Part shown: positions 11,605 through 41,395 of the stretch, piece by piece
How the letters are laid out: the number at the start of each line of letters is the position of its first letter
Position numbering within the stretch: position 1 is the first letter of the stretch
Source of the DNA: a phage
Length of the DNA stretch: 64,000 nt
Reading direction: 5' to 3' (one strand)
Assembly (NCBI GenBank): GCA_026066175.1
Contig: GCA_026066175.1_4721.1
The notes under the pieces: model-generated
What the model saw: the letters and a program-made list of their open reading frames with translations, nothing else
Databases searched by the model: none
Told to the model about the DNA's origin: nothing
Position numbers and translations under genes: made by a program

Positions 11605-11645
11605 ACTCACGTAAGTAATATAGCCGTGAAAGGATTTGTATTGGC
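11605..11645 (-). promoter_or_regulatory. Candidate phage early promoter, copy A (minus-strand TTTCACGGCTATATTACTTACGTG)
   Basis: One of four copies of a conserved motif with a TATATTAC core, each 50 to 100 nt upstream of a minus-strand start codon. Confidence 0.4.
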
Positions 11646-11772
11646 ACGTTCGACGTTCATCGTATTTTATGGATTGTCGAATGACGTCATTTTAAGGGAC
11701 ATCCCCGGCCTCCTCCCCAGGAAAGGTGTGGGGAGGAGTTTTTACCAGACTTTTATTAATTCGAGTGCGAGT

Positions 11773-13854
11773 ATGTTAGATAGAATAAATCGCCTAATGA
11801 ACCGGATAACGGTTAAAAATCAAAGCAACAATACCGTGCATGTTGGGGGTATCGATGCCTGGCGTCTTTCGGACGATATCCAGCGAATCTGGGGTACCTC
11901 TCGGTTTATGAAATATATGTTTCGTAACTTCTCTTCCAGCGGTCTTAGCATTCACAACTTCTATCTGCCTGATTTCGTTTATATTCTTGAAACGATCATT
12001 GATGCAAAGAACACCCGCAGCAACAAGCGGATGCTAAAACGCCTTGTTGAAGTCTTGTTAGAAGAAACCTGGCTGCAAAATACCACCATCGAACAGCCAG
12101 CCATTCTTGATAAAGCGCGCATGAAGAAAATGATGACGCTTTCTTTGTTCGATTATCAAGATGAGTATCTCGACATTTATAACCGCAACGTTCCGAAATA
12201 TCGATTAAAAGGCCATGTGTGTGCGATGGGTGCCGGGGCGGGTAAAACAATTACCGCGTTGGCGTTAAGCGCTGCCTTGGGTGTTGACGTCTTCGTGGCA
12301 TGCTGTCCTAAGAACACCATGCGTTCGGCATGGCAATCAGATTTACATAAAGCGCTTGTGGATCCTGCAACCGAATCCGCATTCTGGTCTGATGTGATGC
12401 CCCCAACCCAGTTACAGAAAAGCGATAAATATTACTTCCTGCATTACGAGCAGATGGGATTGTTAAACGAGATCATGCTCAAGCATAAACGCACAGCAAA
12501 ACGTGTGTTGATCGTTGTCGATGAAAGCCATAACTTCAACGATAAGAACAGTCAACGTTCTCAGCGTTTGGTTGATCTGGTACAGACGATGCGTCAAACC
12601 ATGAATGCGGACATACATGTCTTATTTATGTCGGGTACGCCTGTTAAACAGATGGGTTCTGAAATGATCCCATGTTTAGGTTGCATTGACCCGATGTTCC
12701 AAGGCCAGGTGGTTGATAGCTTCAAGTCGATTTACGGTTTAACCAGCAGTCGTGCTAATGATATCTTAAGGCATCGTCTTGGATTCATGATGCATGTCGT
12801 ACCCAAAGAAGCTTACCGTAAGACACGGCCTGAGGTTCAGGACGTATACGTGAAACTGCCTAACGGTAGTGATTACACCATCTCAAGTATCCGTGACGAT
12901 ATGGCGGTGTTTGTGCGTGACCGTGCAAAATACTACAAAGATAACTGGGGGCATTACCGGAAGATTTTCGATGATGCGCTGGATTTCTATCGTCGGACCA
13001 TACGGACGGAAGGTGAGCGTAAAGAACTGTCTCGTTATGAATCCATCGTCGCCCGCTTTCAGAAAGGTTACGATCCTGTCAGGGATAAAGAAGACGCCAT
13101 GTTCTGCAACGTGTTCGAGAAACGAGCGATCATGCCGATTCTTCCTCCCGATTTACGGATTGCGTTCAAAGACGCCAAAAGCGTCATCAAGTACGTCGGA
13201 TTGAAGATTCAAGGGGAAGCCTTGGCAAGGGTTCTTGGCGCAGCGCGCATTCAATGCCACGTTGATATGGTCGAGTATATCGATTTTGAAGGGTATATCA
13301 ACAATGCTGAAGCCAAAGTGCTGATCTTCACGTCATACGTTCAGGTAGTTGAACGCGTTGATAACCTGCTTCGCGATGCGGGCTTCTTACCAGAACCGAT
13401 CTACGGGAAGACCAACAAGAACATTAACCAGATCCTCGCGCGATTACGCGATGATCCTGACAGCGGTCCCGCTATCGCAACCTTTGATAGTTTAGCGGAA
13501 GGGGTTCCTATGTTAATGTGTAACGTCGGCCTTTTCTTAAATAACCCCTGGCGTTCCTCCGATGAGATCCAAGCCATCAGTCGTCTCGACCGTGTTGGTC
13601 AAACCCAACCTGTTCGTATCTATCGTTTCATGCTGGATACTGGCAGCGAAGGTAACGTTTCAACACGAAGCCAAGAGATCATGGAGTTAAGTCGTCAGCT
13701 GGTTGAAGAAATCACAGGTGTTAAATACAATGTGAATAAACAAGCCGACGTTAACCTACAAGAAACGCTGGCTATGGAAGGGTACGATAGATACTTGACG
13801 ATTAATACCCCTGGGTTTGAAATCAAACCGCGTTCCACGTTCTTAGAATGGTAA
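11773..13854 (+). CDS. SNF2/Rad54-family helicase-like ATPase
   Basis: Walker A GAGAGKT, DExH box VVDESHN, motif VI QAISRLDRVGQ. ORF track start 11599 is GTG and reads through an intergenic hairpin and the promoter motif; first ATG after them is 11773. Confidence 0.55.
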   Translation: MLDRINRLMNRITVKNQSNNTVHVGGIDAWRLSDDIQRIWGTSRFMKYMFRNFSSSGLSIHNFYLPDFVYILETIIDAKNTRSNKRMLKRLVEVLLEETWLQNTTIEQPAILDKARMKKMMTLSLFDYQDEYLDIYNRNVPKYRLKGHVCAMGAGAGKTITALALSAALGVDVFVACCPKNTMRSAWQSDLHKALVDPATESAFWSDVMPPTQLQKSDKYYFLHYEQMGLLNEIMLKHKRTAKRVLIVVDESHNFNDKNSQRSQRLVDLVQTMRQTMNADIHVLFMSGTPVKQMGSEMIPCLGCIDPMFQGQVVDSFKSIYGLTSSRANDILRHRLGFMMHVVPKEAYRKTRPEVQDVYVKLPNGSDYTISSIRDDMAVFVRDRAKYYKDNWGHYRKIFDDALDFYRRTIRTEGERKELSRYESIVARFQKGYDPVRDKEDAMFCNVFEKRAIMPILPPDLRIAFKDAKSVIKYVGLKIQGEALARVLGAARIQCHVDMVEYIDFEGYINNAEAKVLIFTSYVQVVERVDNLLRDAGFLPEPIYGKTNKNINQILARLRDDPDSGPAIATFDSLAEGVPMLMCNVGLFLNNPWRSSDEIQAISRLDRVGQTQPVRIYRFMLDTGSEGNVSTRSQEIMELSRQLVEEITGVKYNVNKQADVNLQETLAMEGYDRYLTINTPGFEIKPRSTFLEW

Positions 13855-13860
13855 TTAAGA

Positions 13861-13882
13861 AGCTCTGCCCGAAGGCAGAGCT
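13861..13882. terminator. Hairpin (agctctgcc / ggcagagct) followed by T-tract
   Basis: Immediately downstream of the stop of the plus-strand helicase gene. Confidence 0.5.
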
Positions 13883-13948
13883 TTATGCCGGATTTACCAC
13901 GAAATCGTATGACGCGATATGCGTCTTTAATTAAAGGAAAAGCGCGAA

Positions 13949-15403: not shown

Positions 15404-15422
15404 AAAAAAATAGTTAGCATAA

Positions 15423-15456
15423 CTTCCTCCCTACCCATAACGGGCGGGGAGGAAGG
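15423..15456. terminator. GC-rich hairpin (cttcctccc / ggggaggaagg), bidirectional position
   Basis: Lies between the convergent genes 13949..15403 (+) and 15473..15811 (-). Confidence 0.5.
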
Positions 15457-15472
15457 TTTATGTGGTTATGAC

Positions 15473-15811
15473 TTAGAACCAGAGTTCTTTCATGAAGTAG
15501 GCTTCCATATCGTAAATAAGCCACTCATCTGGGATTTCTAAAGGATCGTCTTCGGTTAAGGTGAGCATGTGCAGGGCGAACGCACGCTTAATATCTTCCA
15601 ACAGCTTATCATCACCGTAACCTTCGGGTAGTTTACGGTCAACCAGCTGGGTTTGTTTATAGACATCGCGGAACGCTTCAGGATTATGTTTATCCATCGG
15701 GAATTGTTCAGCAGCCTGAACCATCGAAAGCGTCCAGCTTACAACATTGTAACGCTCACCGTTAATTTCACTGAACTTATCATCGATTAAACAGATTTGT
15801 TGTATATTCAT
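15473..15811 (-). CDS. Hypothetical protein (112 aa)
   Basis: ORF on the gene strand. Confidence 0.4.
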   Translation of the reverse strand: MNIQQICLIDDKFSEINGERYNVVSWTLSMVQAAEQFPMDKHNPEAFRDVYKQTQLVDRKLPEGYGDDKLLEDIKRAFALHMLTLTEDDPLEIPDEWLIYDMEAYFMKELWF

Positions 15812-16749: not shown

Positions 16750-19011
16750 TTACAATTCGAAATCTTCATCGATAACGCGTTGGGTTAGCACCTTGTCGCT
16801 GAAGAACTCCACCTTACGTTGATGGTATTTCCGATGTGCTTCAATCGACGTACACACCAGATACCAGAACGTGGGTGTCATACCCTCGAACTTCCCTTTC
16901 AGCTGACGTAGTCGACCTAACACCTGAATGTTACCAGTTCTCGACCCCATCGCTAACGTCATGAACGTCATCACCAAGTCAGGAAGATCGATTCCTGTAC
17001 CAGCCGATTTTACCGTTGTCACACTGATATCATTATCCAGTAACACCATGAAATCTTCTTCAGCGGTATAAGGACCTATCTCCAACTCAGGGATACGTTC
17101 ACTTAAGTAATGCGATAACGACTTGCACATATCAACGGTTGCACAATACACCAACATCTTCATGCCTTCCTGATATTGGTTCATGAAACCTTTGATAATA
17201 ACCGTATAGATAAAGTTGAAATAGGCGAGTTTGAGTTGCTTATTCTTCATGATAGACTGTTCGAATACCGTGTGAGAATAAGAACCTCCAAAGCCTTTGT
17301 ATCGGACTTTATCCGTACTGCGTAGTCGATACGTCACCGCATTTACCGCGATGTATTTCTTGTATTCACATTTCGCATAACGTGCTTCTTTCGGATACAT
17401 CAAATACAGCATCCGCTCGATGAACGGATCGTCAGACACCGCCGTTGCCGACAGATAAATGATTTCCGGAATATTCGCGTAACACTTCACTTTGAACAAG
17501 AAATGCAGAGCTTCGTGACATTCATCGTGGATTAACAATCCAATGCCTGTTTTCTCCCAGAACTCGACTGGATGGAAAACATAAGGTGCGACACAGTTGT
17601 TCTTTTCATAATCGGTTATATAACGCTGAAACATGTTCAGTGAGAATAACGCAATTTTGAAATCCAACTCACCTTGTTCTACCAACGTCTGAAATTCCAA
17701 CATGCTGTAACGAGGAATGTCGGGATGCGGTGGGTCAGACTGGGCTGTACCACGTATCTCGATAACATCACCTGGTTCCATACCGAAGAAACTTAGCAGT
17801 GAGCTACGCCATCCAGGCATGTACCTCGGTGACAGAATGATGCCCGTCCGTACACCACGTCGGAAGGTGATCTCCTGCGACATTGCGGTGTTGTGCGTGA
17901 CGATATGGTCTTTAATAACATAAAGGCTTTCGTCGTTGTCCACCGTGATGCAACGTGCCTTCGCTTTCACCGTCGGCACGATGCCGCCAATCGCTAAACC
18001 AGGAAGCGTGTTAACGGGAAGATCATCTGGAATCTCAATGCCGTCAGGAATAAGCTTAAGCAAATCGGAATGGTAAATTAATGTCTCCATCGTGTAACTA
18101 TTGATGGGGCATTTATACGCGATTCCCCCTAACCGATAAGCCAACTCCCAGACCTCGGTCATTATCTGCGAATCGGTGGTTCTGACCGCAAGGTGAGCCC
18201 ACCCTTCTTCAACACGCAGCACGCAACGATCTTTGATGAGTTCTCTGAAACGATCAAGACCCACGAGTTCTTTCGGTTCGTAAAGTCGGATTCTTACCGG
18301 ACGAGATCGTGACGATCTGTCATTAAGACGTTCCATGATTTCACTCGTGCTGAGCACCTTGTCAGGATCCGTGCATTGCCAGAGATGATCACCACACGCT
18401 TCAACCATTCGTCCATCTTCAAAGAAGACAGCGTAAAGCTGAATATCGTCATGATCAAAGATAGCAGTTACGTTCGTCGGTAAACCATCCGCGCCGATGA
18501 CCTCATCACCCACCTGGAGCTCACCAATCGGCTTCCAACCGCTTGGAACCTTAACGGGTGTATGGAGAGCCAATGCTTTCCCAGACCCCGTGCCTGCGGT
18601 GTTTAGGCTCATTCTGAAAGGGGTATCCTTACCCCCATCCATGTACTCCAACCATTCTTGCTGATCTTCACGCCACGGAAACTTCCAGTTCTTCACAAAC
18701 TCCACTTCCTTACCTGGAACCGGATCGTGGTAAACGATTTCCAACCACTCCTTTCGAATTCCTCGAGAAAAGATAAAATCCAAAAACGACTTCAGCTGTT
18801 CACGAAGTAAGTAGACCTCGCTATAATCGCTTCTTGCTGCGGCGTAGGTGTTGATGGTATCGGTGACCATTCTCCGTGTACGAGGGTCGCGTCGTTTCCG
18901 TAGATGCAAACAACGGTCTCGAAGGTAATGGCCAATCAAATGGGCAAATCGAAGTCCGTATCCGCTCAGCTTCATGCCATGCGAGAAGACGTCGATACGA
19001 GCTAACTTCAT
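16750..19011 (-). CDS. DExH-box helicase with an intein-like insertion in the Walker A motif
   Basis: GTGSGK is followed by a 229-residue insert ending VTHN, then T; removing the insert gives GTGSGKT. Downstream DExH box LLIHDECHEAL. Confidence 0.55.
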   Translation of the reverse strand: MKLARIDVFSHGMKLSGYGLRFAHLIGHYLRDRCLHLRKRRDPRTRRMVTDTINTYAAARSDYSEVYLLREQLKSFLDFIFSRGIRKEWLEIVYHDPVPGKEVEFVKNWKFPWREDQQEWLEYMDGGKDTPFRMSLNTAGTGSGKALALHTPVKVPSGWKPIGELQVGDEVIGADGLPTNVTAIFDHDDIQLYAVFFEDGRMVEACGDHLWQCTDPDKVLSTSEIMERLNDRSSRSRPVRIRLYEPKELVGLDRFRELIKDRCVLRVEEGWAHLAVRTTDSQIMTEVWELAYRLGGIAYKCPINSYTMETLIYHSDLLKLIPDGIEIPDDLPVNTLPGLAIGGIVPTVKAKARCITVDNDESLYVIKDHIVTHNTAMSQEITFRRGVRTGIILSPRYMPGWRSSLLSFFGMEPGDVIEIRGTAQSDPPHPDIPRYSMLEFQTLVEQGELDFKIALFSLNMFQRYITDYEKNNCVAPYVFHPVEFWEKTGIGLLIHDECHEALHFLFKVKCYANIPEIIYLSATAVSDDPFIERMLYLMYPKEARYAKCEYKKYIAVNAVTYRLRSTDKVRYKGFGGSYSHTVFEQSIMKNKQLKLAYFNFIYTVIIKGFMNQYQEGMKMLVYCATVDMCKSLSHYLSERIPELEIGPYTAEEDFMVLLDNDISVTTVKSAGTGIDLPDLVMTFMTLAMGSRTGNIQVLGRLRQLKGKFEGMTPTFWYLVCTSIEAHRKYHQRKVEFFSDKVLTQRVIDEDFEL
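17890..18576 (-). other. Putative intein (229 codons, Ala1 ... His-Asn, +1 Thr)
   Basis: Hint-like blocks GELQVGDEVIGADG near the N-terminus and CITVDNDESLYVIKDHIVTHN at the C-terminus; sits exactly inside the P-loop. Confidence 0.5.
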
Positions 19012-21047
19012 AACGTGATTACATCCTCCGGTTTAGGTTCTTTACGCGGTAGAAGCATGTAGTCGATCGGATGATCTGGCTTCATGGTTGGGATATAACT
19101 GTTCGGGTTTTGGAACGCATCCAGTTGCTCTTGGTGAGCGAACTTCATACTCAAGGAGCGCATGTTCATGTTCTTCTTGAAGGTACTGAAATAACGAGTC
19201 GTTCCCTGTTTCGGCATGCGGTAATCTTTCGTGTGTGGTGAACGAATCATACTCGCGTAGAGAATAACGTCCAGATGCGATAGATTCATTCGTAAACGTT
19301 GCGCACACAGACGATGCCAATAATACAGTACGTTGGCTACTTCTTCTGGTGTCGCTTCATCTTCCGAAAGGAATCCTGCACTGAACGAACCTTTCCCGAA
19401 TTTGAATTCACGTTCGATTTCTTTTGCGTATTCCATCATGTTTTTATGGATGAGTGGCATCTGGAATAGCGTCCGTGAATTGTCCCAATGTTTCAAGTCG
19501 AAGATCACAATCCCGTCTGCTGTTACTTCCCAGCTATGGCGTTTGAGATAACGGATAAACGCTTTGCTTGGTACAACAGGACGTCCACAGAAATCGAAAT
19601 TGACTTTGAGTTTACGATAGCTCTCATCTTTCCTGTCGTAAATCTCCATATCGCAAAGCGTCATGTTGAACAGACGTTGCGGGATAAGCGAACTGATCTC
19701 TTCCGCTTCAGCTACATCGTACAACATGTTCGCCAGACCGAGTTTCATCTTAATCAGCACGTGTTTGCCTTTCAGCTCACGGGCTAATTTGATGTCGTTC
19801 ATGTTCTGGCTGTAACGAAGGATATGTTGATATTCCGGCGGGATTGGTGACGTAGACACGGTGGACGAACCATCGTGATGTTTGGTCGAAAGAATGTTCT
19901 GGGTAACCTGTTGTGAACCTGTACGTGCTGAGCAGTCTCCGATGTTGTCGGTCAATGCAAAGTTATGGCTTAATTCACCATAGCACGTTGCACAGACACC
20001 AGCAGGATCAGAATGATGACAGTAACAAACGGAACGCATGTTCACAATGGTACCGATCAATTCTTTCATGTGAGGCTGTATCGACAACAGCGAACCATCT
20101 TCACGTAAGATGAATCGACCGTGGAAACCTTTAAGATCGGTTTCATCACGTATCGGCATCGGAATGGTTTCTCTGCTTCCACAATCACCAGGATGCAGAC
20201 GTTGTACAACCGCCGTTGCGATTTGCAGCTCACGTCCGAAATATTCTGACTTCTTAATCTGCTCCTTGTTGAACAACAAAGATTTTGCCGCAGAGCGACT
20301 TTCTTTTAAGCTGTCCGGAAGCGAGATCAAGCCTGCTGCATACGAGCGCATCACTGGGTCACGGAAGATCTCCGAGTTGATATCGGTTAAGAAACCACGC
20401 ATCCCAATACACTGCAATACCTGTCCGATTGACACGTGTTCGGTTCTTACCGCACGTGCGATCGGGTTGGCATGCAATGTTTTATCGGTACTTAAAACTT
20501 TTGTTAGTTTCTTGTATGCGCTCTCAATACCTTCGCGGGTGGGTTCCGCTTCAGCGATGATTTTCTTCACTTCGGGATGTACGGTAATCTGATAAAAATC
20601 ATCCGCACAGATGGTCGTTACGTATTCCTCCAACGCATACGTAAAGAAGTTATAAACGTGGTTAAACATATCGAACAACGCTTTCCAGAGAACCTCACGA
20701 TTCTCTTGCGGATACGCATACATGCATTGACGATAGGCTGCGCTTTGTAATGCAACGGAAGAACCTGCCGTAAACTTGCGTTTATCCACCAGGTTCTCTT
20801 TCGTTAACGGTGTCTCAGGATACATGCGATGTAAAGACCAATGCATGTAGCTAAAGAAAATGCGTCGCGCACGCAATTCATGAACACCATCGTCCATCTC
20901 GATATACACACGGTCATTAGGCTGTGCCCACTCGAACACCTCATCAACCGGCCAATGCATAAGCTCTCGCGCCCGTACACGGCGTTTCGTGGTGATCGTC
21001 TGTACTGTATTCATTATTTTTACTTTCCGATTAAGTGGTTTTATCAT
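19008..21047 (-). CDS. Large hypothetical protein (679 aa), Cys-cluster containing; possibly a polymerase subunit
   Basis: ATGA overlap with the helicase start; contains CYCHHSDPAGVCATC. Function not assignable from sequence alone. Confidence 0.4.
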   Translation of the reverse strand: MIKPLNRKVKIMNTVQTITTKRRVRARELMHWPVDEVFEWAQPNDRVYIEMDDGVHELRARRIFFSYMHWSLHRMYPETPLTKENLVDKRKFTAGSSVALQSAAYRQCMYAYPQENREVLWKALFDMFNHVYNFFTYALEEYVTTICADDFYQITVHPEVKKIIAEAEPTREGIESAYKKLTKVLSTDKTLHANPIARAVRTEHVSIGQVLQCIGMRGFLTDINSEIFRDPVMRSYAAGLISLPDSLKESRSAAKSLLFNKEQIKKSEYFGRELQIATAVVQRLHPGDCGSRETIPMPIRDETDLKGFHGRFILREDGSLLSIQPHMKELIGTIVNMRSVCYCHHSDPAGVCATCYGELSHNFALTDNIGDCSARTGSQQVTQNILSTKHHDGSSTVSTSPIPPEYQHILRYSQNMNDIKLARELKGKHVLIKMKLGLANMLYDVAEAEEISSLIPQRLFNMTLCDMEIYDRKDESYRKLKVNFDFCGRPVVPSKAFIRYLKRHSWEVTADGIVIFDLKHWDNSRTLFQMPLIHKNMMEYAKEIEREFKFGKGSFSAGFLSEDEATPEEVANVLYYWHRLCAQRLRMNLSHLDVILYASMIRSPHTKDYRMPKQGTTRYFSTFKKNMNMRSLSMKFAHQEQLDAFQNPNSYIPTMKPDHPIDYMLLPRKEPKPEDVITL

Positions 21048-21122
21048 ACAGTGTATTCATTCCGTTGGAATTTACTCCGGGAGTCCCTTCCCTTAGGTTA
21101 TATAGGTGTTAATATATCTCGG

Positions 21123-21608
21123 TTATCCTGCTTTCTTCTGAAGGCTATAAGGATCCATCGCATCGGAGCGGTCGGCAACGATGGTAAGAATGAAGCCTTT
21201 TATCTGTCTCACTTCGGTAACCCGGAGTCCCCTATCGTTACGATAAACATTTTCTTCGCCGACCAGTTTTGGTCGAATAACATAAACCCCATCAACGAAC
21301 GGAAACGTTGAATACGGATAAATACCAATACGAATAATATTCGGATGATCACCTCGAGGGTCACGTCCAAACACATCAACTCTACCGTAAATCGTGCCGT
21401 CCGCACCTTCCACTTCAATAAGGTCGTTGCGAATATCCTGAAACAGTTGTTCTAAGGTCTCTACGGGATATGTATAAGCGACGCCTAATGCAACATCCTC
21501 AATGGTCTTAACGCTAAATCCGTTAAGCCAAATAATCCGATCATCTGTCCATGTTTCTTCATACGCTGTTAATCCGTCGCCGTATATGTTGGCGTGTGCT
21601 ATCTCCAT
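21123..21608 (-). CDS. Hypothetical protein (161 aa)
   Basis: ORF on the gene strand. Confidence 0.4.
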   Translation of the reverse strand: MEIAHANIYGDGLTAYEETWTDDRIIWLNGFSVKTIEDVALGVAYTYPVETLEQLFQDIRNDLIEVEGADGTIYGRVDVFGRDPRGDHPNIIRIGIYPYSTFPFVDGVYVIRPKLVGEENVYRNDRGLRVTEVRQIKGFILTIVADRSDAMDPYSLQKKAG

Positions 21609-26989: not shown

Positions 26990-28576
26990 TTAGAAGTTGC
27001 CTTTGGTGGTTACAGCATCAACCAGGTTGAACAAATCGATGCTCAGCTTATACACTTCCTGCTGGCTACGGTTAAGCAGCGGGCTATAAGCAGAAGGGTT
27101 GATGTTCGGCATGGTGTATGGAATCGGGGCAGAGCCATCAACGCTGATCTTGAACTGGCTATCCAGGAACAGGTTAATTGCGCCACTTACCATAACCGCA
27201 TTCGGGTTGTTCCCTAACATCGACGGTAAGATGTTGATGATCATATCGGAACGCATCTGCTCAGCAGCACGGTTACAGTCGTAGCCTTTAATGAACGGTA
27301 CCGCATCGGTAACCGCAACCGCCCACTGGCCTGGCATGATGCCCAGCTCTGGGTGACCGTGGTTGTCTGCAATGAAACGGAACGATTCCAGCATGCGATA
27401 CGTCATCGCCGCAGGCATCATGGACGCCAGCGAGGAGCAATAGATCGTTGGATAATCGATCACATCCCAGCTTTGGCTATCCGTTGGCATCCAACCGAAT
27501 TCGGTGGTTGCTGATGTACCGCGACGGGCTTCCACATACGGGAACAGCGTCAGGACATCACGGATATGTTCACCGAAATGCCGTTTCATTTCACCCCAGC
27601 TCAGGCTACCGTTAAACGAAAAGCCCTCATCACGCATGATCTCATTGAACATCGTGTGCGCAACCAGCGGTTGTTCACGGACGTATTGAGAAGCCTCAAC
27701 GTAAACATCCTCGTTGTTGGCCTCGCCGGGATGAGAACCTAGCTCGAAGGTCTGACGAACGGTACCCACGCTATCGAACGCTTTCTTCAGATAGATGGTT
27801 GGGATATTTGTATCGATGCTGGCGGGTTTTACCTTCTCTGTTGCAAAACACAGCGCAGCATCCATACCACGAACAACCGGTTCCTGTTGTGGTCGGTATG
27901 TTGAGTGGTTCACGACGTCCGCATACATCGGGTCGAACTGTTGCATCACGTTCTGCATCGAAGGATCCATGAACTGATTGTCCATACCACCATTACCGAG
28001 CCAACGTGCAGTCGATGCGTAGGTCAGCGTATCCTGCACACGGGTACTGAACTGAACGTCGTTGTTCATTGGGTCATACGCCCCGGTAAGCAGATGGATA
28101 GCATCTTGAGGAGCTGCACGTACAACCTGTTTACCGAACATATCAACGGTGGTTGTTTCCAGCACGATAATGACGTTGGTGAAGAAGAACTGCAATTCGT
28201 TCGGTAGATCTTGTACGCGGGTTGTGTATGCATCCAACGGAACAGAATAATCGGTGTATCCAGACACGTAATGAACACGTTTGCTTCCTGGAGCTAACGC
28301 AACCGATTCTTCTGCTGCCATCATGAAATGGAAACGACGGGTACCCCAACCATTAGCAATCTCTGAAACCCCTTCCGGCTGTGCGGTTTGCTCTAACATC
28401 CCGGCAGCCAGTTTATTGATCGCTGATGGTGTTGTCGCGGTGCCGAATCGCGTTGTGTTAATAAACTCTTCCAGGCTATGCATGCTGTCAGCGTGGAACT
28501 GAATTGGACGACGGTGCACATTGTTGTATGGTGCGGTTTCAACCATCAGGATTTCACGAACATTCATCGATACCAT
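26990..28576 (-). CDS. Hypothetical protein (528 aa)
   Basis: Long ORF with consistent coding composition. Confidence 0.45.
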   Translation of the reverse strand: MVSMNVREILMVETAPYNNVHRRPIQFHADSMHSLEEFINTTRFGTATTPSAINKLAAGMLEQTAQPEGVSEIANGWGTRRFHFMMAAEESVALAPGSKRVHYVSGYTDYSVPLDAYTTRVQDLPNELQFFFTNVIIVLETTTVDMFGKQVVRAAPQDAIHLLTGAYDPMNNDVQFSTRVQDTLTYASTARWLGNGGMDNQFMDPSMQNVMQQFDPMYADVVNHSTYRPQQEPVVRGMDAALCFATEKVKPASIDTNIPTIYLKKAFDSVGTVRQTFELGSHPGEANNEDVYVEASQYVREQPLVAHTMFNEIMRDEGFSFNGSLSWGEMKRHFGEHIRDVLTLFPYVEARRGTSATTEFGWMPTDSQSWDVIDYPTIYCSSLASMMPAAMTYRMLESFRFIADNHGHPELGIMPGQWAVAVTDAVPFIKGYDCNRAAEQMRSDMIINILPSMLGNNPNAVMVSGAINLFLDSQFKISVDGSAPIPYTMPNINPSAYSPLLNRSQQEVYKLSIDLFNLVDAVTTKGNF

Positions 28577-28577: not shown

Positions 28578-30164
28578 TTATTTTTTTCCTCTTAAATTTA
28601 CTACATGTTCATTTAATCGAACAACTAATTGCACAAGCTGCTGACGGATATCTGCTGGGCAAAGCATCAATCCTTTACGATCAGCGGGGACTTTCTCAAG
28701 GATTTCAGGGCCTGCTGCTGAAACATCCCAATCCCATTCACAAAACGCATCGGCTACCATGTTAATACCGACAACCGGTAAAGTTGTACGTTCATCTTCA
28801 TACATGGCATGCGGATACAATTTATTGACGGTAATAATCTCCTGTGGTTTTAATTGGTGGATAATCTGATAAACATCATCACGTTTAACCTGGATGCCTA
28901 CGGTTAATGCGGCCAGTTGAGGGAAACCCCAATGGTCTAACAAGCATGCCGCAATCGCTAACGCTTTTGCCTGATGCACGGCTTCAATCGGTGCCAGACT
29001 TCTCGCCGGAAGATGGCTGTCCAACAACCATTGCGCCAGTGCTCGGCATCCGCGATTGATCGGTTTTAACTCAACGGTATCATCATGCTTCGCGTAGGTG
29101 TATCCGTCGTAACGTTTTGCGATACGCGCATACATGTCTTCAACCTTACCGTACGGTGCGGTTTCATCAACGTCGTGTAACACCCGTTCCATCTGGGTAA
29201 GATAAGCGATATCAAGAATGAGTACACGTGGTGAACGTTTATCTTTCACCATCAGCGCATCAATCACACCTTGGCTATCTTCATCTTGCGCATTCCCTCG
29301 CGGAGTTTTCTCACGTATGGGTCCGCTGAAACGACGTTCCGTACAGAGGTTATTCACATAACTGAAAATCAGCGTCACCAGATGCGTACAACTGACCAAC
29401 ACCCCATCTTTAACGACGGGCTGCACGGCTTGGTCCAAATCACGTACCGCAAGGCGTCTGACGATGGCTTGCGAACGCAACCAACCCGGCACTTTTTCTG
29501 TTGACATGTAATCCACGGTCATCGACAACGTGATCTTTTTATCGCCTGTCTGTGCACGGATATAGTCTTCCAGTCGGTCATAAGCTGCGATATCATGAAT
29601 GCGTGTTTTATACATCAGCGACATCGCCACTTCTTCTTTACGTACTGTCCCGTACGTTTTCCCCGCATCAATCAGGAACTCAGCCCAGATAGGCACCATC
29701 AAACGAACGTAAATCGCTAACGCGGTTAACTCAACATAATCGTTTCGTAAATAGGTTTTCTCTGGGATATCATCCTCGCCTAATGTCGTTTTCATATCCG
29801 GCGGTAATTTTACCCAACCTGGGGTATTACACAACGCCAGAATCTCTTCGTATACAACAGGTTTGTAGATTTCACCAACAGCGCGGCTCAGCTCCTCCAT
29901 TTGTTGTTGTGGCGCAATGTAATTATCCATCGCTTCACGTGCTTTAACGAACCCTTCAAAGATATCATCGGTTCGACGTGGGTTCTTTTGCTCTATCCAG
30001 GCAAGATACTTGTTAATCTCTCGCATCTGATTGCTGGCCATATCCCCATCGATCTTGATATACCCTTGGCCTGAAAATTCCACGGTACGTCCATCACGAT
30101 GTTTGATAAGATAATGGTCTAGCTTTTCTTTGCCTTGCGTCGTAATGACGGGCACAATGTGCAT
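28578..30164 (-). CDS. Hypothetical protein (528 aa)
   Basis: Long ORF; promoter motif copy D lies about 55 nt upstream. Confidence 0.45.
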   Translation of the reverse strand: MHIVPVITTQGKEKLDHYLIKHRDGRTVEFSGQGYIKIDGDMASNQMREINKYLAWIEQKNPRRTDDIFEGFVKAREAMDNYIAPQQQMEELSRAVGEIYKPVVYEEILALCNTPGWVKLPPDMKTTLGEDDIPEKTYLRNDYVELTALAIYVRLMVPIWAEFLIDAGKTYGTVRKEEVAMSLMYKTRIHDIAAYDRLEDYIRAQTGDKKITLSMTVDYMSTEKVPGWLRSQAIVRRLAVRDLDQAVQPVVKDGVLVSCTHLVTLIFSYVNNLCTERRFSGPIREKTPRGNAQDEDSQGVIDALMVKDKRSPRVLILDIAYLTQMERVLHDVDETAPYGKVEDMYARIAKRYDGYTYAKHDDTVELKPINRGCRALAQWLLDSHLPARSLAPIEAVHQAKALAIAACLLDHWGFPQLAALTVGIQVKRDDVYQIIHQLKPQEIITVNKLYPHAMYEDERTTLPVVGINMVADAFCEWDWDVSAAGPEILEKVPADRKGLMLCPADIRQQLVQLVVRLNEHVVNLRGKK

Positions 30165-30210
30165 AACAACCTCTTTTCGCGGTTCCCTGTTAAACGTTTT
30201 CTATAACGCC

Positions 30211-30248
30211 ATCAAGGAGGTAATATAAGCGTGAATAATTTTGGATTC
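30211..30248 (-). promoter_or_regulatory. Candidate phage early promoter, copy D
   Basis: Plus-strand ggaggtaatataagcgtgaataatt matches the motif shared with copies A to C. Confidence 0.35.
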
Positions 30249-30366
30249 CTGCTGAGTCATCGCTCAGCATGCAAGGCATCCCGCCGAAGCGAGACACCTT
30301 GCACTAACGGAAAATACTCGCGTTACCTTCTGAATCGAAGACCCAGAATGCGATACTAAAGCATCA

Positions 30367-34805: not shown

Positions 34806-34929
34806 CGATATCTCCCATTAAAAACGTTTTCTATTTCATAGAGTGCTGGAAATTCGTAGAAAATTACAAAAAGAAAAAGAAGGGCGCGGCCCCTCCCCAC
34901 CCGAGGGCAGGGAGAAACCGCAGATATCA

Positions 34930-35394
34930 TTAAACCAGCGCCGCGATAACGTCGTTGACGTTGCGACCGCGCAGCTCAGCCGCTAAGCGAATCACTTCAT
35001 CCAGGGAACGCGTTGTACGAATCTTGGCCACTTTCCAATTTTCAGGATACTGTTCGAAGTTCAGCAGCCAGGTCATGACTTTCGCTTGTTCCACACCGTT
35101 CAGCTTGATGGTCGTACGCGGATTGGCTTTAAACCACTTCTTGCTTAACTGTGCCATACGGCGAACAGGGTAAGCATAAGCGCGAGTCCAGTCTTTGGAC
35201 AGATTGTCGAGTAATTCACGATAGCTGCTGTCGTAGTCTTTGTTAATACGACGTAACAGCCAGTTGGCGGTCATCTGGTAGAGTTTATCGTCTTCACGTA
35301 AACGCATACCTGCCATCGCTAAATAAACAATAAGGCCCGCACCCATAATCAGAGACAGGATAAACAGAATTTGAGTTTCTTGAGCTAATGTCAT
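34930..35394 (-). CDS. Putative membrane protein with one N-terminal transmembrane helix
   Basis: ILFILSLIMGAGLIVYLAMAG hydrophobic segment; start trimmed to ATG 35394, preceded by GAGGAT. Confidence 0.4.
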   Translation of the reverse strand: MTLAQETQILFILSLIMGAGLIVYLAMAGMRLREDDKLYQMTANWLLRRINKDYDSSYRELLDNLSKDWTRAYAYPVRRMAQLSKKWFKANPRTTIKLNGVEQAKVMTWLLNFEQYPENWKVAKIRTTRSLDEVIRLAAELRGRNVNDVIAALV

Positions 35395-35485
35395 TTTACT
35401 ATCCTCGGATTTATTAGGATTTGATTTCCAATATAAGGACAACGCCTTATACAGTCGATTGATGTTGTACATCGCATCTGTGATG

Positions 35486-35525
35486 TATCACAGAAGTAAT
35501 ATAGCCGTGAAAATTATTGTATTAA
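35486..35525 (-). promoter_or_regulatory. Candidate phage early promoter, copy B
   Basis: Plus-strand cagaagtaatatagccgtgaaaattattgtatt is nearly identical to copy A. Confidence 0.4.
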
Positions 35526-36361
35526 CGTGTTCTCCTGTCACGATGGGTATATGACTGTAATCCGATGTCCATATGCGGTAACGTCAATGTTTGCCAGATC
35601 TGTTGTGCGTAGCGATCGAGTGTGTAGTCGTTGGTAACGCAGTCAACAGGTTCAATGAGATGCGTCGTATATTGACTTTTCTCTGAAAACGGATCAACGT
35701 TAGCAGTATCTCCTAGTCCGCTTTTCACCGTGAAAACAAGACGAGTAACCACCATCGCTTTACGTTGTTGCTCGTTATAACGAAGGCCACGATAAATCGC
35801 ATAGCTCGCGCCTTTCAGGCTTCGGGTATAACGAAGGTCAGATGTTGTCCCGCCAATTTGATGCAACATCCAGTCTAATGTATCCCGCCAGTATTTATCA
35901 TCCGTGTCAGGTACCTCGATACCGTAACGGGTGGGAAGCATATCCAGAAGCAGTTTGTAGAGTCCACGACGCAAGCCGTGTTCTTCTGTTTCTGATAACA
36001 TCTTTCCTCCAACATAACGAGAAATACGTGTTCGTAAATACGCACGAATAAACATGCACGTCATTACTGTTTTCGAGTGGCTGGTGATGTCTTCAAAAGT
36101 ATCAACACTGAAACTCGTTTCGATCAACCGTCCGTTAAAGTACAATGCAGCTACATACATCGCGCTACTGCTGTCTCGGTCGATGTTCAAACGACCGCAG
36201 ATATTGGCTGCGTCGTTCATGGTAAATTCGAGTTTGTCGTGTTCAATACGGTAGATAATATCTTCTTGGGTTGCCAGGCTCGCAATACGACGATAGCCTG
36301 GAGTAGTACGTTTAACGCTCATAATGGTCCTCGATTTCAATTTTAGGATTACAGACGGCAT
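35522..36361 (-). CDS. Hypothetical protein (279 aa)
   Basis: ORF on the gene strand. Confidence 0.4.
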   Translation of the reverse strand: MPSVILKLKSRTIMSVKRTTPGYRRIASLATQEDIIYRIEHDKLEFTMNDAANICGRLNIDRDSSSAMYVAALYFNGRLIETSFSVDTFEDITSHSKTVMTCMFIRAYLRTRISRYVGGKMLSETEEHGLRRGLYKLLLDMLPTRYGIEVPDTDDKYWRDTLDWMLHQIGGTTSDLRYTRSLKGASYAIYRGLRYNEQQRKAMVVTRLVFTVKSGLGDTANVDPFSEKSQYTTHLIEPVDCVTNDYTLDRYAQQIWQTLTLPHMDIGLQSYTHRDRRTR

Positions 36362-36364
36362 AAA

Positions 36365-36390: not shown

Positions 36391-36412
36391 AGCCATTGGT
36401 TGTCTTCGCCGG

Positions 36413-37051
36413 TTAGCCTAATTTACCTCCGGCGATGTTCGTGAAGTCTTCACCATCAGGGACCTGCAACAGAATACGTGCCATGTCCCAGTTGGTCAAT
36501 GTGATTGCTTTATCATCGATACTCAGTTCTGGTAGGTCGAGCTCATGATCATCGAACTCGTAGGAAATGCTCCATGTTTCATCAGTTTTAGGATCAGTTA
36601 TCAGCACACCGTCTGTTACACGCATGTAATCAGGGTGCAGCTCATTACTGAACGTGCTGAACGGATCGGTGTAACATTCAGCATAACCCTCGATCTGCTG
36701 ACGCTGTGCCTTCGTACGTAACTCAGGACACGCCATGATCAGCTGTCGGGAAATGCCGTTAGCCGCTCGGAAATCTTCCACGGTGATGCACGGCATCACC
36801 ACATCGTCATGGAAGATATTCTCCGACTGTCTCAACAAGGTCTTACGAAGTTCAGTATAGTTGATCTGATTGAACGTATCGAATGTTGCTAACGATTCCG
36901 CGTAAAAATGCTTTACGTGTTCGTTTGCGCCACCGAGACTGTTCATCAGCTTATGACCATACTCCATAAAGCTTTTATCGAGCCCAGTATTCATTTCTCC
37001 GAACCGTAGTGCACGATAGCTGTCTCGTCCACCTGTAAATATTTGCGCCAT
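36413..37051 (-). CDS. Hypothetical protein (212 aa)
   Basis: Immediately downstream of the beta-prime gene; N-terminus TGGRDSYRALRFGEM...FMEYG loosely recalls the beta GGQRFGEME...EAYG block. Confidence 0.4.
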   Translation of the reverse strand: MAQIFTGGRDSYRALRFGEMNTGLDKSFMEYGHKLMNSLGGANEHVKHFYAESLATFDTFNQINYTELRKTLLRQSENIFHDDVVMPCITVEDFRAANGISRQLIMACPELRTKAQRQQIEGYAECYTDPFSTFSNELHPDYMRVTDGVLITDPKTDETWSISYEFDDHELDLPELSIDDKAITLTNWDMARILLQVPDGEDFTNIAGGKLG

Positions 37052-37066
37052 TACAGGCGTCCTCCT

Positions 37067-37304
37067 TTAGCATTGGTTATTGATTGCTTCTATTTCATCG
37101 ATATACGGTTCTACGTCATCGCCCTCCACGAATTCGTTGAACCAACAGTCAATCGTTGAGATAACCGGTGACTGATGTTCACATTTCTTAGATACCTTAA
37201 ACGGAACGTTGTTATCCATCATACCGAGTTCGGGTCGGAATCGCCCGAAATGTTTCGCAGTCCAAATGTCTGGGACGATATGGTTGTTCATAGCGTCTCC
37301 GTCG
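37067..37304 (-). CDS. RNA polymerase beta-prime N-terminal subunit, exon 3
   Basis: Frame is open upstream of the track ATG back to the proposed 3' splice site; the exon begins c-gac-gga-gac (xDGD) and continues AMNNHIVP...LGMMDNN, which aligns with beta-prime DGDQMAVHVP...LMMSTNN. Confidence 0.6.
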
Positions 37305-37683
37305 CTGTTTGTCGACTATATCTTCATCTTCATTGCGAAGAGACTCTCGTTTGGGTTTGTGTTTAACAAAGCCTACTCTACTCAACATCGCGTCTTTCGA
37401 TAGTCTGTGAGCACACATCTTAACGAATATTCGTGGGTTCCTACAGACAGGTGAATATTCTTGTTGAGATGCTTCGCTGCGGATTATTCCCGTCCTACCT
37501 CTTTTACCATACCCAGTTCATTACGCTGGCCCTCATCGATGTCACCATGATGAGTTGGTGTGTAGTCCGATTACAGAAACTTCCCGTCAATTAGAGAGTT
37601 TTAACTATGCTCCTGTTACCAGGAACCAGATCCCGACGGCATCAATAAATCAACGTAAGTTATTGATTTAATTGAAAAAACTG
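37305..37683 (-). ncRNA. Group I intron 2 (about 379 nt)
   Basis: Minus-strand core elements AAUUGACGGGAAG (P), AAUAAUCCGCAGCG (Q), GCUCACAGACUAUCG (R) and GAAGAUAUAGUCG (S). Preceding exon ends in U, intron ends in G, and an internal GAUCUG can pair with exon CAGAUU. Confidence 0.6.
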
Positions 37684-37702
37684 AAATCTGCATTATCTAA
37701 AC
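37684..37702 (-). CDS. RNA polymerase beta-prime, 19-nt mini-exon (exon 2)
   Basis: gtttagataatgcagattt supplies (C)LDNADF when joined to the flanking exons. Confidence 0.55.
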
Positions 37703-38071
37703 CTTCGATATGGTTCGCTACGCCATACCCGCACATACGTGCAGCTTACGTCTTTCACGTAAGAAGAGACTATATCTTTCACCCTCAGCTTTACCTGTTA
37801 GGGGCTCCCATTTCGGCGGTCGTTTGACCGGTGGTTTCCCACGCCGCTTGGCCCTAACGCCCGTAAGCGATAGTCGTTGAGCACATCTCCGTTCTGGAGA
37901 CTTCGCTGCGGATTCCCCAATCCTTACTGCTTTTACCGTACCTGAATGATTAGTTCAGCCCCATGCTCTGTTCCCAGGCATGGTTGGTGAGCAAGGCTCT
38001 AAGTAGGTTCCCGCTATTAGAGAGTTCCTCGTGATAGCATTACTGTGTCACTGGGCCTAATGACCCTTTCA
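37703..38071 (-). ncRNA. Group I intron 1 (about 369 nt)
   Basis: Minus-strand core elements AAUAGCGGGAAC (P), GGAAUCCGCAGCG (Q), GCUCAACGACUAUCG (R) and GAAAGAUAUAGUC (S). Proposed P1 pairs exon AUGAUCU with GGGUCAU across a UGAAA loop; intron ends in G. Confidence 0.55.
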
Positions 38072-39305
38072 AGATCATCACGCTTAACCCGATGGTATTA
38101 TCCTGCGGGTCGCGTTTAACCTTGGTGATTTCAAGACATTGGTTACTGCTACGGTCAAGTGATGGATTTCGAACAAAGCCACACACAATCCCATCGAACG
38201 GTGTATCAGCAATAAGCTCGTCATGCAGCTCGCTCATCATCGGATGATAATTGCGGACATGCTCTGCAACGAACGCACGGGCTGCTCTTGGTGAATAACC
38301 ACGATGGAATAACTTGGATTGGATATGTTCTTTATTGGTTAGTGTAAATGGTGCGTACGGAAAATGCAGATGATAATAACGATGGTTTGCTGTTATCGAA
38401 CTGATGACCGTACGTGTGGTGAATGGATGTAATGTACCTAATATGTTCTTACGTGTGATCCCTTTCTTCTTACCAATGAACTCATCGAAAATCGCCGAGT
38501 GATACTGCAACAGCTTCAATTGCACTTTCGCCATCCAGTTTTCTTTCTTTCTGGCGCTTAGTGGCGTGGTTGGATGATAGATGCTATTCAATGTTCCGAT
38601 GGCGTCTATCGCACCTTCCATTTTGCTGTCAGCGTAACGTCCTGTTGGCGTGTTCTCGATCACGAACATCATGGCTGCAGGAAAGCTGATGTACTGACTG
38701 AAGAATTTATCCCGATGAATACGGATGAATTCGCGTAGCGTATCAACCTTCTCCATGTTCTTCGGTCCACGTAGTGTTGGGCCTTTATACAAGATCTCCA
38801 TGATACGATCGAAGTTCTGTATAAAGCTATTTATACCGCGTCGTATTCCGAATACATCGAATTGCTGTTCCAGATAGTTCTTAAGTTCGATCGGTCGTTT
38901 TACGTTCGGACGGTAACTGGCATCAATGAGCCACGTCATCGTTTCAAAGCTTTTGATATTCAACTCGCTTGCCAGCACGAGATGGACCAACGGGTTAATG
39001 AACGCATCGATACCTTCCGGTACGCGCGCCCAGACCGTTGAACGAATCTCTTGTTCTGCTGGATAAGTGACAACCGTTTTACAGTTCGGGCACACCGTCC
39101 CTAATAACTCACCGCGATTATAGAAACCACAACCGCATTGCGGGGTGATATCCAAGGTATCGCTAGAGTAAACACGGGTGATGAAACTGTTTAATTTCTT
39201 CTTCTCTTCCACGACCTTCGTATCATAATCGTTCAACAATATCGGCGTAAAAGGAAGTTCTGCGAGCTGTCTATCGAAACTGACGATATCGAGCATGATG
39301 GCCAT
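38072..39305 (-). CDS. RNA polymerase beta-prime N-terminal subunit, exon 1
   Basis: N-terminal zinc-binding CGCGFYNRGELLGTVCPNC and RNPSLDRSSNQCLE matching beta-prime RQPTLHRLGIQAFE. The track ORF continues to a stop at 38040 through intron sequence (LKGSLGPVTQ). Confidence 0.6.
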
Positions 39306-39347
39306 GGGGTATCTCCTGCAAATGAAAAAGAACGTTAGGACGTATAA

Positions 39348-39371
39348 GGGAGGGAGGTTGCCCTCCCTCCC
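39348..39371. terminator. GC-rich hairpin (gggagggagg / cctccctccc)
   Basis: Immediately downstream of the stop of the 39398..41296 gene. Confidence 0.5.
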
Positions 39372-39397
39372 GTCAGTTTACATCGAACGTTCTTCCA

Positions 39398-41296
39398 TTA
39401 GAACAGGTTGAATGCCCCGCCCATGCCGTTACCGCCCACATTCGGACGATCGTTACGTGCGTAGATGTTACCGCTGATGGTACCCAGACCACGAGCACGT
39501 GCTGCCATGTTACCACGAACAGCGGTACCTGCCAGATGCTGGATGTTCTCAGGACGGATGGTGAAGCCTGCTTCAGCAGCCGCTTCAATCAGTGCCTGCA
39601 GCGCCAGCGGATCGAAATCATAACGCATCGCCCAGCCAGTTTGTTCCCAGCTACCAGACAGAACGCGGTCGATGATTTCGTGACGAGCAACCACACGCTG
39701 AGACATCGACATATCGGTACGGTCGAAGCTGTCTTCCCAAGCTTCTACGGTATCCGGGTTAGTGATGTTCATCATGTACAGATCGTCCATATCACGAATA
39801 TCGTGACGGTTACCGTCCTGGTGGTTGTAGTGACCCAGCGGGATACGGTTACCGGTCGCGTAGACCAGCGGTGAGCCGTACGGATATTTCTTGCTGAAGC
39901 AACCCAGGGTAACATCATCGAACGCACGGAAGAGGGCTTTGTAGCCTTCGGAGTATTCCTGTACGTCCCCTTCAACATTACCCGAGAAGATCTTCTCAGC
40001 CGCCGGGATCATACGCAGCAGCCAGCTGTACTCACCTTCTTCTGGTACGTCGATAGAGATCAGCAGAGACGGATACAGAACCTGTTGCAGGAACTTGTAA
40101 ATCTGCTCGTTGGTTTGCGTAGACAGATCCAGCGGTGCAGTCACTTCAGGATCCAGCACCATCGCCAGAGCACCTGGGTTATGCGGACCAATACCACGAG
40201 CTGCGTTGCTGATTAAAGACTGCGCCCACGCCATGCCGCTGTTCAGCGTAGCGATGGTACCAATCAGACCCAGCACGAAGCTGTTCGGCGTGAACGCATC
40301 CAGTTCCAGCGGATACATGCTGGTCATTACGTAGCGCGGTTGGTACTGTACAGTTGGCGGTACCGGATAACCGTTAACCAGAACAGGACCTTGCTGGAAG
40401 GTCGGGTTCTGCGGGCTGTAGGTCAGATCGATATAACCGGTGGATGCAACCAGACGCTGCTGGCTATCGTAATCGCCCATCGCTTGACGGATGCGGTTAG
40501 AGATAGTTACAGTAATGTCGGAGCGTACCGGGTTACCCGCGATATCGCTATCCTGCATGCCGCTGGTGTTATACTGAACGCTACTGATCGGCTGATCGCT
40601 TGCCATCATACCCAGGTTGAACTGAGGCAGGCCCAGTCTGTCAGCAAAACGCATTTCGGTTGCCGTCTGGATCGCGTTATCCGCTGCGGAAAGCAGGGTG
40701 GTTGCCAGATGCGCAGATTCAGCAGTGATTTCATTGGTCACAACAGCCAGACCAGCGATACGTACCGTACCGTTAGCTTTACCACCGATAGCCGCATACA
40801 TCGCTGCCATGACTTCGTTGATGAACGTGCCGTTCAGGTTATCCACCCAAGTACATGGTACCAGGATGTTACCGTGAGGACCACGTTCTTCACGACGTGG
40901 CAGCGGAGCCAGGCCAGCAACCAGCGGAAGGACGTAACCGAAGAAGTGGTTATGATCACCCACTTTTACACCGCTCATCACAACCAGAGTCGGATACGGT
41001 ACGCTGTACTGATTCGGGTCAACCGCAACAAAGATGAAGTCGTCTTTGAACTGGGTATCTTCCAGATATTTCTCCATCAGACGACGGAGATTCAGTACCT
41101 GCTCGGAGCCGGTATTACGGCTGATACGACGGCTCAGTGTACGGTTAATCGTACGCATCGTATGAGTTACTTTAGGACGGTCAGCAAAATCTGCAGCGGT
41201 TTCGACCGCCTCGTTAGCATGCTGCGCCGTGCGGGTTTCAGCCACGCGGATGTCTACGTTATCGTTACCGTTATTGTTACGTACGTCTAAGCCCAT
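39398..41296 (-). CDS. Candidate chimallin-like phage nucleus shell protein (632 aa); major capsid protein not excluded
   Basis: Size of about 70 kDa, high-expression-like codon choice, its own promoter motif and terminator, and proximity to a PhuZ-like tubulin and phage RNA polymerase genes. Confidence 0.45.
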   Translation of the reverse strand: MGLDVRNNNGNDNVDIRVAETRTAQHANEAVETAADFADRPKVTHTMRTINRTLSRRISRNTGSEQVLNLRRLMEKYLEDTQFKDDFIFVAVDPNQYSVPYPTLVVMSGVKVGDHNHFFGYVLPLVAGLAPLPRREERGPHGNILVPCTWVDNLNGTFINEVMAAMYAAIGGKANGTVRIAGLAVVTNEITAESAHLATTLLSAADNAIQTATEMRFADRLGLPQFNLGMMASDQPISSVQYNTSGMQDSDIAGNPVRSDITVTISNRIRQAMGDYDSQQRLVASTGYIDLTYSPQNPTFQQGPVLVNGYPVPPTVQYQPRYVMTSMYPLELDAFTPNSFVLGLIGTIATLNSGMAWAQSLISNAARGIGPHNPGALAMVLDPEVTAPLDLSTQTNEQIYKFLQQVLYPSLLISIDVPEEGEYSWLLRMIPAAEKIFSGNVEGDVQEYSEGYKALFRAFDDVTLGCFSKKYPYGSPLVYATGNRIPLGHYNHQDGNRHDIRDMDDLYMMNITNPDTVEAWEDSFDRTDMSMSQRVVARHEIIDRVLSGSWEQTGWAMRYDFDPLALQALIEAAAEAGFTIRPENIQHLAGTAVRGNMAARARGLGTISGNIYARNDRPNVGGNGMGGAFNLF

Positions 41297-41356
41297 TTGG
41301 GAATCCTCTTTTTCTTAACTTTTAAATGACGTCATTGAATCAGCTTTTTCTCGCTC

Positions 41357-41395
41357 ATTCACCTAGGTAATATAACCCTGAAATTTTTTTCAATA
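41357..41395 (-). promoter_or_regulatory. Candidate phage early promoter, copy C (upstream of the chimallin-like gene)
   Basis: Plus-strand cacctaggtaatataaccctgaaattttttt matches copies A, B and D. Confidence 0.4.

Follow-up and report, generated by a model that had tools for sequence, protein, structure and literature searches.

Conserved intergenic sites in a Goslar-like jumbo phage are probable early promoters of the phiKZ class

The 64,000-nucleotide (nt) stretch of phage DNA analysed here (the window; contig GCA_026066175.1_4721.1 of NCBI assembly GCA_026066175.1) carries, upstream of minus-strand genes, four intergenic copies of an extended motif that are very probably early promoters of a Goslar-like, nucleus-forming jumbo phage and belong to the early-promoter class of phage phiKZ. 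The case is made by the motif itself, by its placement in front of genes, by its conservation in relatives and by its match to phiKZ, all of which are direct observations. The class is already known from phiKZ, so that these sites are new members of it in a new Goslar-like phage and imply no new mechanism.

The core of the motif, the octamer TATATTAC, occurs exactly four times in the window, each time on the minus strand (sites 1 to 4, Table 1). Taken by itself this count is not above chance (2.4 copies expected, and at least four in 21 of 100 shuffles), nor are one-mismatch variants of the octamer enriched in the window; thus, only the extended motif is informative. The latter spans about 42 nt of the minus strand and is composed of an A-rich tract, TTTCACGGC, the core, five variable bases and TGA, over which the four loci align without gaps and with pairwise identities of 26-31 of 42 positions (-24 to +17 around the core start). 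Their outer flanks show random identity (27-47 of 120 positions) and the loci are therefore not duplicated segments. The first-pass annotation of this DNA, made from the sequence alone, had described four near-identical copies; they are present at the loci that it gave, as are both of the example strings that it quoted, and the extended motif proves to be significant. The consensus that it wrote for the core, TTTCACGG(C/T)TATATTAC, is exact for sites 1 and 3 only; in place of TTTCACGGC, site 2 has ATTCACGCT and site 4 has TTTCAGGGT. When each site was scored with a matrix built from the other three, it reached 27-39 bits and, of 127,918 positions, only the three training sites ranked higher; in 40 Markov-simulated windows the top scores were 15-21 bits.

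On sequence grounds, the source of the window is a new Goslar-like nucleus-forming jumbo phage of the Chimalliviridae, because a 3-kb stretch around its chimallin gene shares 90.5% identity with Escherichia phage vB_EcoM_Goslar (hereafter Goslar), because the encoded chimallin, the shell protein of the phage nucleus, is 93.8% identical to that of Goslar (and less than 30% identical to all other chimallins), and because IMG/VR holds relatives at 83-90% identity. A nucleotide-level search of the phage collection with the 3-kb chimallin region returned no match besides Goslar. In IMG/VR, Goslar itself is accompanied by two further Goslar-like genomes, both uncultivated, UViG_3300011560_000001 (237,533 bp) and UViG_3300045988_173921 (182,865 bp), the sequenced stretches of which are each 83-90% identical to the window, and both of which keep the same promoter sites; the window is distinct from all three. 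The window is co-linear with Goslar from about 131 to 195 kb, is approximately 92% coding, and contains 60 minus-strand and 11 plus-strand genes when these are called as longest open reading frames (ORFs).

The complete Goslar genome, used with its deposited annotation, allowed the motif to be scanned genome-wide. It contains ten copies of TATATTAC, all on the minus strand, eight of which are embedded in the extended motif, whereas the other two lie inside genes. A matrix derived from these eight sites retrieved four more Goslar sites, with TACATTAC as their cores, and with the resulting 12-site matrix 12 minus-strand sites score 44-56 bits, while everything else in Goslar stays at or below 17 bits. 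Of these strong sites 11 are intergenic and all 12 are co-oriented with the next gene (13 of 14 and all 14, respectively, when weaker sites are counted), so that the motif is neither randomly oriented nor as frequent inside genes as between them, the two arrangements that would have spoken against the first-pass proposal. Applied to the window, the same matrix scores the four sites at 40-50 bits (null maximum 11.4), and besides them and two weaker copies nothing exceeds 3.2 bits; this result depends in part on the window, in that four of the 12 training sites are orthologues of window sites, and the independent tests of the motif are the leave-one-out scoring described above and the phiKZ-only matrix described below. 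No intragenic match above the null was found with the Goslar matrix in either the window or Goslar, the exception being a Goslar site at 49725 (47.5 bits) that falls inside gp047, an annotated hypothetical gene of 62 amino acids (aa). Because a strong promoter site lies inside this ORF, we suggest that either the ORF or its start is mis-annotated in Goslar. Outside the promoters, TATATTAC is rarer in Goslar than expected (2 copies as compared with 8.1, P = 0.012), which is consistent with selection against stray promoter cores.

All six window sites, that is the four strong ones and the two weaker ones, are intergenic and co-oriented with the next gene on the minus strand, in spite of the high coding density, and the four strong loci are not paralogous. 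The one overlap, at site 1, is with an artefactual GTG extension of a plus-strand helicase ORF, the Goslar orthologue of which starts 160 nt further on. The cores of sites 1 to 4 lie 49, 56, 102 and 71 nt from the ATG, which corrects the 50 to 100 nt estimated at first pass; the gene behind site 3 has its start, which is conserved and comes with a GAGGA ribosome-binding site, at 35394. The ATG of the longest ORF, at 35472, is not the true start, because Goslar has frame-breaking indels there. Just after the site 3 promoter the window carries a 16-nt insertion that creates a small hairpin, CTGTGAT/ATCACAG, at the 5' end of the predicted transcript (35472-35489); where the window has this insertion, Goslar (166040-166062) has an ATG directly after the predicted start G.

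Each of the six window sites has a Goslar orthologue, and the four strong ones correspond to four strong Goslar sites. Site 1 is conserved at Goslar 142793, site 3 is conserved in Goslar as well as in the two uncultivated genomes, and site 4 is identical to its Goslar counterpart at 42 of 42 positions. Between window and Goslar, 91% of the motif columns are identical as opposed to 80% of the remaining flanking intergenic DNA (Fisher p = 1.5e-5), and indels abut the edges of the motif. Moreover, one Goslar TACATTAC site has an orthologous TATATTAC counterpart in an IMG/VR relative, which implies that both cores are interchangeable. Four of the IMG/VR matches to TTCACGGCTATATTAC fell on unrelated contigs, did not reach 12 bits with the Goslar matrix, and were set aside as chance.

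The two weaker copies, with cores beginning at 21097 and 55978, were overlooked in the first pass, whose count of four holds for exact copies. Both are intergenic, both are kept in Goslar and both score above the null maximum, and they may belong to the same promoter class, with less certainty than the other four. The 21097 site lacks a T before its predicted start and appears in Goslar as a conserved block with flanking indels, and its assignment to the class is uncertain. The 55978 site is identical to Goslar 187632 at 41 of 42 positions.

The first-pass annotation had pointed out a likeness to the early promoter consensus of phiKZ-like phages, and here the phiKZ genome sites, the ranking by a phiKZ-only matrix and the published description all agree with it. 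Within positions 1-50,000 of the phiKZ genome, all seven copies of TATATTAC are on the plus strand and lie between genes, in front of a gene each time; one of these genes is that for chimallin, gp054. Further copies lie upstream of gp058.1, gp068 and gp076. With a matrix made from the seven phiKZ sites, the four window sites rank first to fourth in the window, at 34.7, 19.7, 10.2 and 8.3 bits, the null maxima having a mean of 5.7 and a highest value of 14.5, so that the two weakest lie inside the null range. Over 36 nt, the chimallin promoters of phiKZ (aatgaaaaaaatttgagattTATATTACtaaattGaat) and of the window (attgaaaaaaatttcagggtTATATTACctaggtGaat) share about 80% identity, and their predicted leaders measure 66 and 64 nt, respectively, with proteins that are about 24% identical. 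Site 2 is syntenic as well, since phiKZ has a TATATTAC promoter between gp067 and gp068, the same place as in the window. In general, the sites share with phiKZ early promoters the core, a T-G at +6/+7 after it, a TTT block 6 nt upstream of it following an A-tract, and an intergenic, gene-co-oriented and, in front of chimallin and the gp068 homologue, syntenic location. The T-G is invariant in the sequences of all 4 window, 12 Goslar and 7 phiKZ sites. The three positions 7-9 nt upstream of the core are each T in 10-11 of the 12 Goslar sites, and the T-rich element is present, at the phiKZ spacing, in three of the four window sites, site 2 having ATT.

These features recall what has been published for phiKZ, whose early promoters contain a conserved AT-rich element centred near -10 (PMC7598289, PMC4666361). 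Wicke et al. define the early-promoter motif as an extended -10 box preceded, upstream of -19, by a T-rich element, and place it at the primary start site of PHIKZ054 (PMC8244752). Differences are nevertheless apparent. Between the TTT block and the core phiKZ has TTTAAACAG or TTTGAGAT, whereas most Goslar-like sites have TTTCACGGC there; about 12-14 sites are found in Goslar as compared with 28-32 reported for phiKZ; and, unlike those of phiKZ, the Goslar-like sites are all on the minus strand and belong to phages whose host is E. coli. Elsewhere in the family, the core and the T-G are found upstream of chimallin in Erwinia phage RAY, Salmonella phage SA002 and Klebsiella phage Eowyn, one-base variants of the core are found there in PhiPA3, Noxifer and RP12, and no clear core match was seen upstream of chimallin in Xanthomonas phage RTH11. 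A full-text literature search for TATATTAC gave nothing relevant.

More distant systems offer partial parallels. The early promoters of AR9, AAATATATATTAT-(6N)-G (PMC5312081), and PBS1-type phages likewise combine an AT-rich ATATATTA core with six bases and an initiating G and are served by a virion-packaged multisubunit RNA polymerase; however, the last base of the AR9 core is T and not C, the upstream elements are others, the genome contains uracil, there is no phage nucleus and the lineage is distant. T7-like promoters are similarly long, information-rich and phage-specific, span the start site and confer host-independent transcription, but both their sequence and their single-subunit polymerase are unrelated, which makes them a functional analogy only.

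By comparison with phiKZ, the sites would be read early in infection by a multisubunit RNA polymerase that is packaged in the virion and injected with the DNA. Initiation would take place at the invariant G, seven bases past the core and within the conserved TGA. A start at this G would place TATATTAC at about -14 to -7 and the TTT(C) block at -23 to -21, with the A-rich tract before it, fitting the published phiKZ descriptions, and the transcripts would have leaders of 42-95 nt. The products made in this way would be those needed first, namely the nuclear shell protein, subunits of the non-virion RNA polymerase, the importer PicA, an HD-domain hydrolase and a small membrane protein. Some indirect support for early reading comes from Goslar, in which chmA and picA transcripts are found at 5 min and in vesicle-arrested infections and belong to the early, vesicle-stage programme (10.1101/2023.09.20.558163), given that only the virion polymerase is available upon arrest at the vesicle stage. 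The non-virion polymerase subunits of phiKZ are early gene products (PMC4666361), and the chimallin gene and the homologues of PHIKZ055, PHIKZ068 and PHIKZ074 downstream of the window sites are assigned to the early class by homology only.

Several points weigh against this interpretation. First, the chmA start of Goslar has been published only as an RNA-seq-based region within 91 nt of the ATG, which is imprecise. Second, some 12-14 Goslar sites stand against 175 of 249 Goslar genes detected at 5 min, and therefore extensive read-through or other early signals must contribute. Third, the phiKZ consensus used here was derived from the phiKZ genome and not from the published consensus figure. 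Fourth, the virion polymerase genes of Goslar (gp78, gp196, gp205, gp207 and gp210; 10.64898/2026.04.21.720040) map outside the region equivalent to the window, and their counterparts are presumed to be present in the window's phage in view of its roughly 90% identity to Goslar. Finally, it is uncertain whether site 4 ensures co-transcription of chimallin and the PHIKZ055 homologue behind it, because a strong hairpin lies between the chimallin and the RNA polymerase gene.

A different phage enzyme could perceivably be involved, in that the sites might be middle or late promoters of the non-virion RNA polymerase or be shared by both polymerases. The phiKZ middle motif AAAATTACC (PMC4666361) has ATTACC in common with half of the sites (TATATTACC), the degenerate sites (TATATAACC and TACATTACC) look intermediate and may be where the overlap matters, and the early promoter of PHIKZ054 is accompanied by a middle one (PMC8244752). 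Yet the overlap is confined to ATTACC, the middle motif is reported to be centred near -22 to -24, and the full motif agrees with the early sites of phiKZ in its core, its spacing, its TTT block and its T-G start. A late class is further contradicted by the start region, (G/T)TGA instead of TATG(+1), and by an extensive upstream conservation that phiKZ late promoters do not have. Besides, the genes behind the sites encode subunits of the non-virion polymerase, which the same enzyme cannot make first, and we consider this possibility quite improbable.

Transcription by the E. coli RNA polymerase from host sigma-70 promoters, with TATATT as the -10 box, is in our judgment very improbable. TATATT does match TATAAT at five of six positions, placing an AT-rich hexamer near -10 as in sigma-70 promoters of the plain or extended -10 type, and site 3 reaches a 9 of 12 match as TTAATA-16-TATATT. 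However, five of the six sites have only 1-3 of 6 matches to a -35 element at any spacer of 16-18 nt, the TG of an extended -10 occurs in none of the six, and sigma-70-like matches are not enriched in the region (20 against 23.3 expected). The sites instead have conserved positions on both sides of the hexamer, and neither TTTCACGG, nor the final C of the core, nor the downstream T-G-A has a role in sigma-70 recognition. There is no evidence for a sigma factor, and phages of the phiKZ type develop independently of the host RNA polymerase (PMC7598289, PMC4666361).

A repeated protein-binding or recombination cassette (a regulator operator, an insulator or a dispersed repeat) that is not a promoter would account for the 45-50 bits of information, far above the need for about 12 sites, for the near-identity of some copies and for the 4-5 bp inverted repeat TCAC(G)...(C)GTGA that flanks the core in several of them, but it is hardly credible in the face of strict co-orientation with genes, a fixed position 49-102 nt before start codons, outer flanks so unrelated that the copies cannot be mobile repeats, and the fit to a promoter class whose start sites have been mapped in phiKZ. 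Since the inverted repeat neither covaries nor occurs in phiKZ, a hairpin or dimer-binding reading of TCAC...GTGA was rejected. Likewise, with its 13-15 nt spacer the repeat does not resemble the hairpin promoter of the N4-type virion polymerase, which has a stem of 5-7 bp and a 3-nt loop.

Table 1. Probable and candidate promoters of the window, with the genes and hairpins around them
Feature	Position	Strand	Details
Probable promoter site 1	11605..11646	-	core 11615-11622; predicted start G 11608; 42-nt leader; 45.6 bits
Probable promoter site 2	30210..30251	-	core 30220-30227; predicted start G 30213; 49-nt leader; 40.2 bits
Probable promoter site 3	35486..35527	-	core 35496-35503; predicted start G 35489; 95-nt leader; 50.0 bits
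Probable promoter site 4	41357..41398	-	core 41367-41374; predicted start G 41360; 64-nt leader; 48.2 bits
Degenerate candidate promoter	21087..21128	-	core TATATAAC at 21097-21104; 20.8 bits (null maximum 11.4)
Degenerate candidate promoter	55968..56009	-	core TACATTAC at 55978-55985; 15.5 bits; upstream of gene starting 55919
HD-domain phosphohydrolase, first gene behind site 1	10880..11566	-	PF01966, E=1.5e-7; orthologue of Goslar gp159
PHIKZ074 homologue (non-virion RNA polymerase subunit), behind 21097 site	19008..21047	-	E=1e-85
PicA orthologue (528 aa), second gene behind site 2	26990..28576	-	orthologue of Goslar gp174
PHIKZ068 homologue (528 aa), first gene behind site 2	28578..30164	-	E=5e-28 to PDB 7ogp_B / 9rjs_B
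Two stacked hairpins	30252..30304 (30269-30304 and 30252-30267)	-	adjoin site 2 upstream; z = -5.9; conserved in Goslar
Terminator-like hairpin	34885-34922		downstream of site 3 gene
Small membrane-protein gene behind site 3	34930..35394	-	154 aa; one N-terminal transmembrane (hydrophobic) helix; orthologue of Goslar gp182
PHIKZ055 homologue (non-virion RNA polymerase beta-prime, N-terminal part), next after chimallin	38040..39305	-	E=9e-60
Strong hairpin GGGAGGGAGGG-CAAC-CCTCCCTCCC	39348-39371	-	separates chimallin and PHIKZ055 homologue; region z = -7.5
Chimallin (phage nucleus shell protein), behind site 4	39398..41296	-	PF25677, E=8e-26

The first-pass identities of the genes behind the four sites were borne out. 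The HD-domain and chimallin proteins match their Pfam families, the protein behind site 3 has a hydrophobic N-terminal helix, and the 528-aa protein encoded behind site 2 is homologous to the fifth non-virion RNA polymerase subunit, PHIKZ068. The HD-domain gene is followed by a run of small genes. The second gene behind site 2 starts 1 nt past the stop of the PHIKZ068 homologue and is the orthologue of Goslar gp174, that is PicA, which acts in nuclear protein import (bioRxiv 10.1101/2023.09.20.558163); a paralogous origin of these two adjacent 528-aa genes was rejected, their sequences being unrelated. The stacked hairpins upstream of site 2 probably mark the end of the upstream transcript, which contains ChmC, and the hairpin between chimallin and the PHIKZ055 homologue probably acts as an attenuating terminator and so controls how much chimallin is made relative to the RNA polymerase product.

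Further sequence elements were noted in the window. A 12-bp palindrome, AATGACGTCATT, has exactly two copies in the window (11680-11691 and 41325-41336), both conserved in Goslar and both located in the divergent intergenic regions of sites 1 and 4, one upstream of the site 1 promoter and the other in the chimallin leader. The divergent region between the HD-domain and helicase genes also contains a stable hairpin, CTCCTCCCCA...TGGGGAGGAG (11700-11745), which is given as a plus-strand terminator in the Goslar annotation even though no gene of that strand lies ahead of it. The minus strand has two group I intron-like matches in tandem, at 37305-37674 (49.1 bits, E=4e-11, just below the Rfam cut-off of 50) and 37746-38083 (27.9 bits, E=9e-5), between the PHIKZ055-like gene and its probable second exon (about 37052-37291); no homing-endonuclease ORF is present in this region (37305-38083), and at gathering thresholds Rfam has no match in the window. 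The corresponding part of Goslar, about 1.8 kb with one annotated intron and an HNH gene, does not align with the window.

Taken together, the model of early promoters known from phiKZ holds with hardly any change in a distant genus. For a coliphage of the Goslar type, and thus for one of the few kinds of nucleus-forming phages that infect E. coli, the predicted minus-strand G starts of Table 1 amount to a precise map of expected early starts, tied to genes for the construction of the phage nucleus and of the second RNA polymerase, and this map may serve annotation, the interpretation of existing Goslar RNA-seq data and the design of reporters or knock-downs. The only mildly unexpected point is the near-invariance of the element across genera. 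Since the core is kept in phages of E. coli, Pseudomonas, Erwinia, Salmonella and Klebsiella with shell proteins that are only about 24% identical, and since its syntenic positions in front of chimallin and of the gp068-like subunit are kept as well, it is conceivable, and to our mind an evenly balanced question, that the virion-polymerase promoter is an almost frozen, family-wide element, which comprises the core TATATTAC-N5-TG and, in the case of the shell-protein gene, all of the region from -32 to +4. If this were generally true and unreported, a single matrix could suffice to predict which genes of any nucleus-forming phage are early, and the element could provide a portable, host-independent early promoter.

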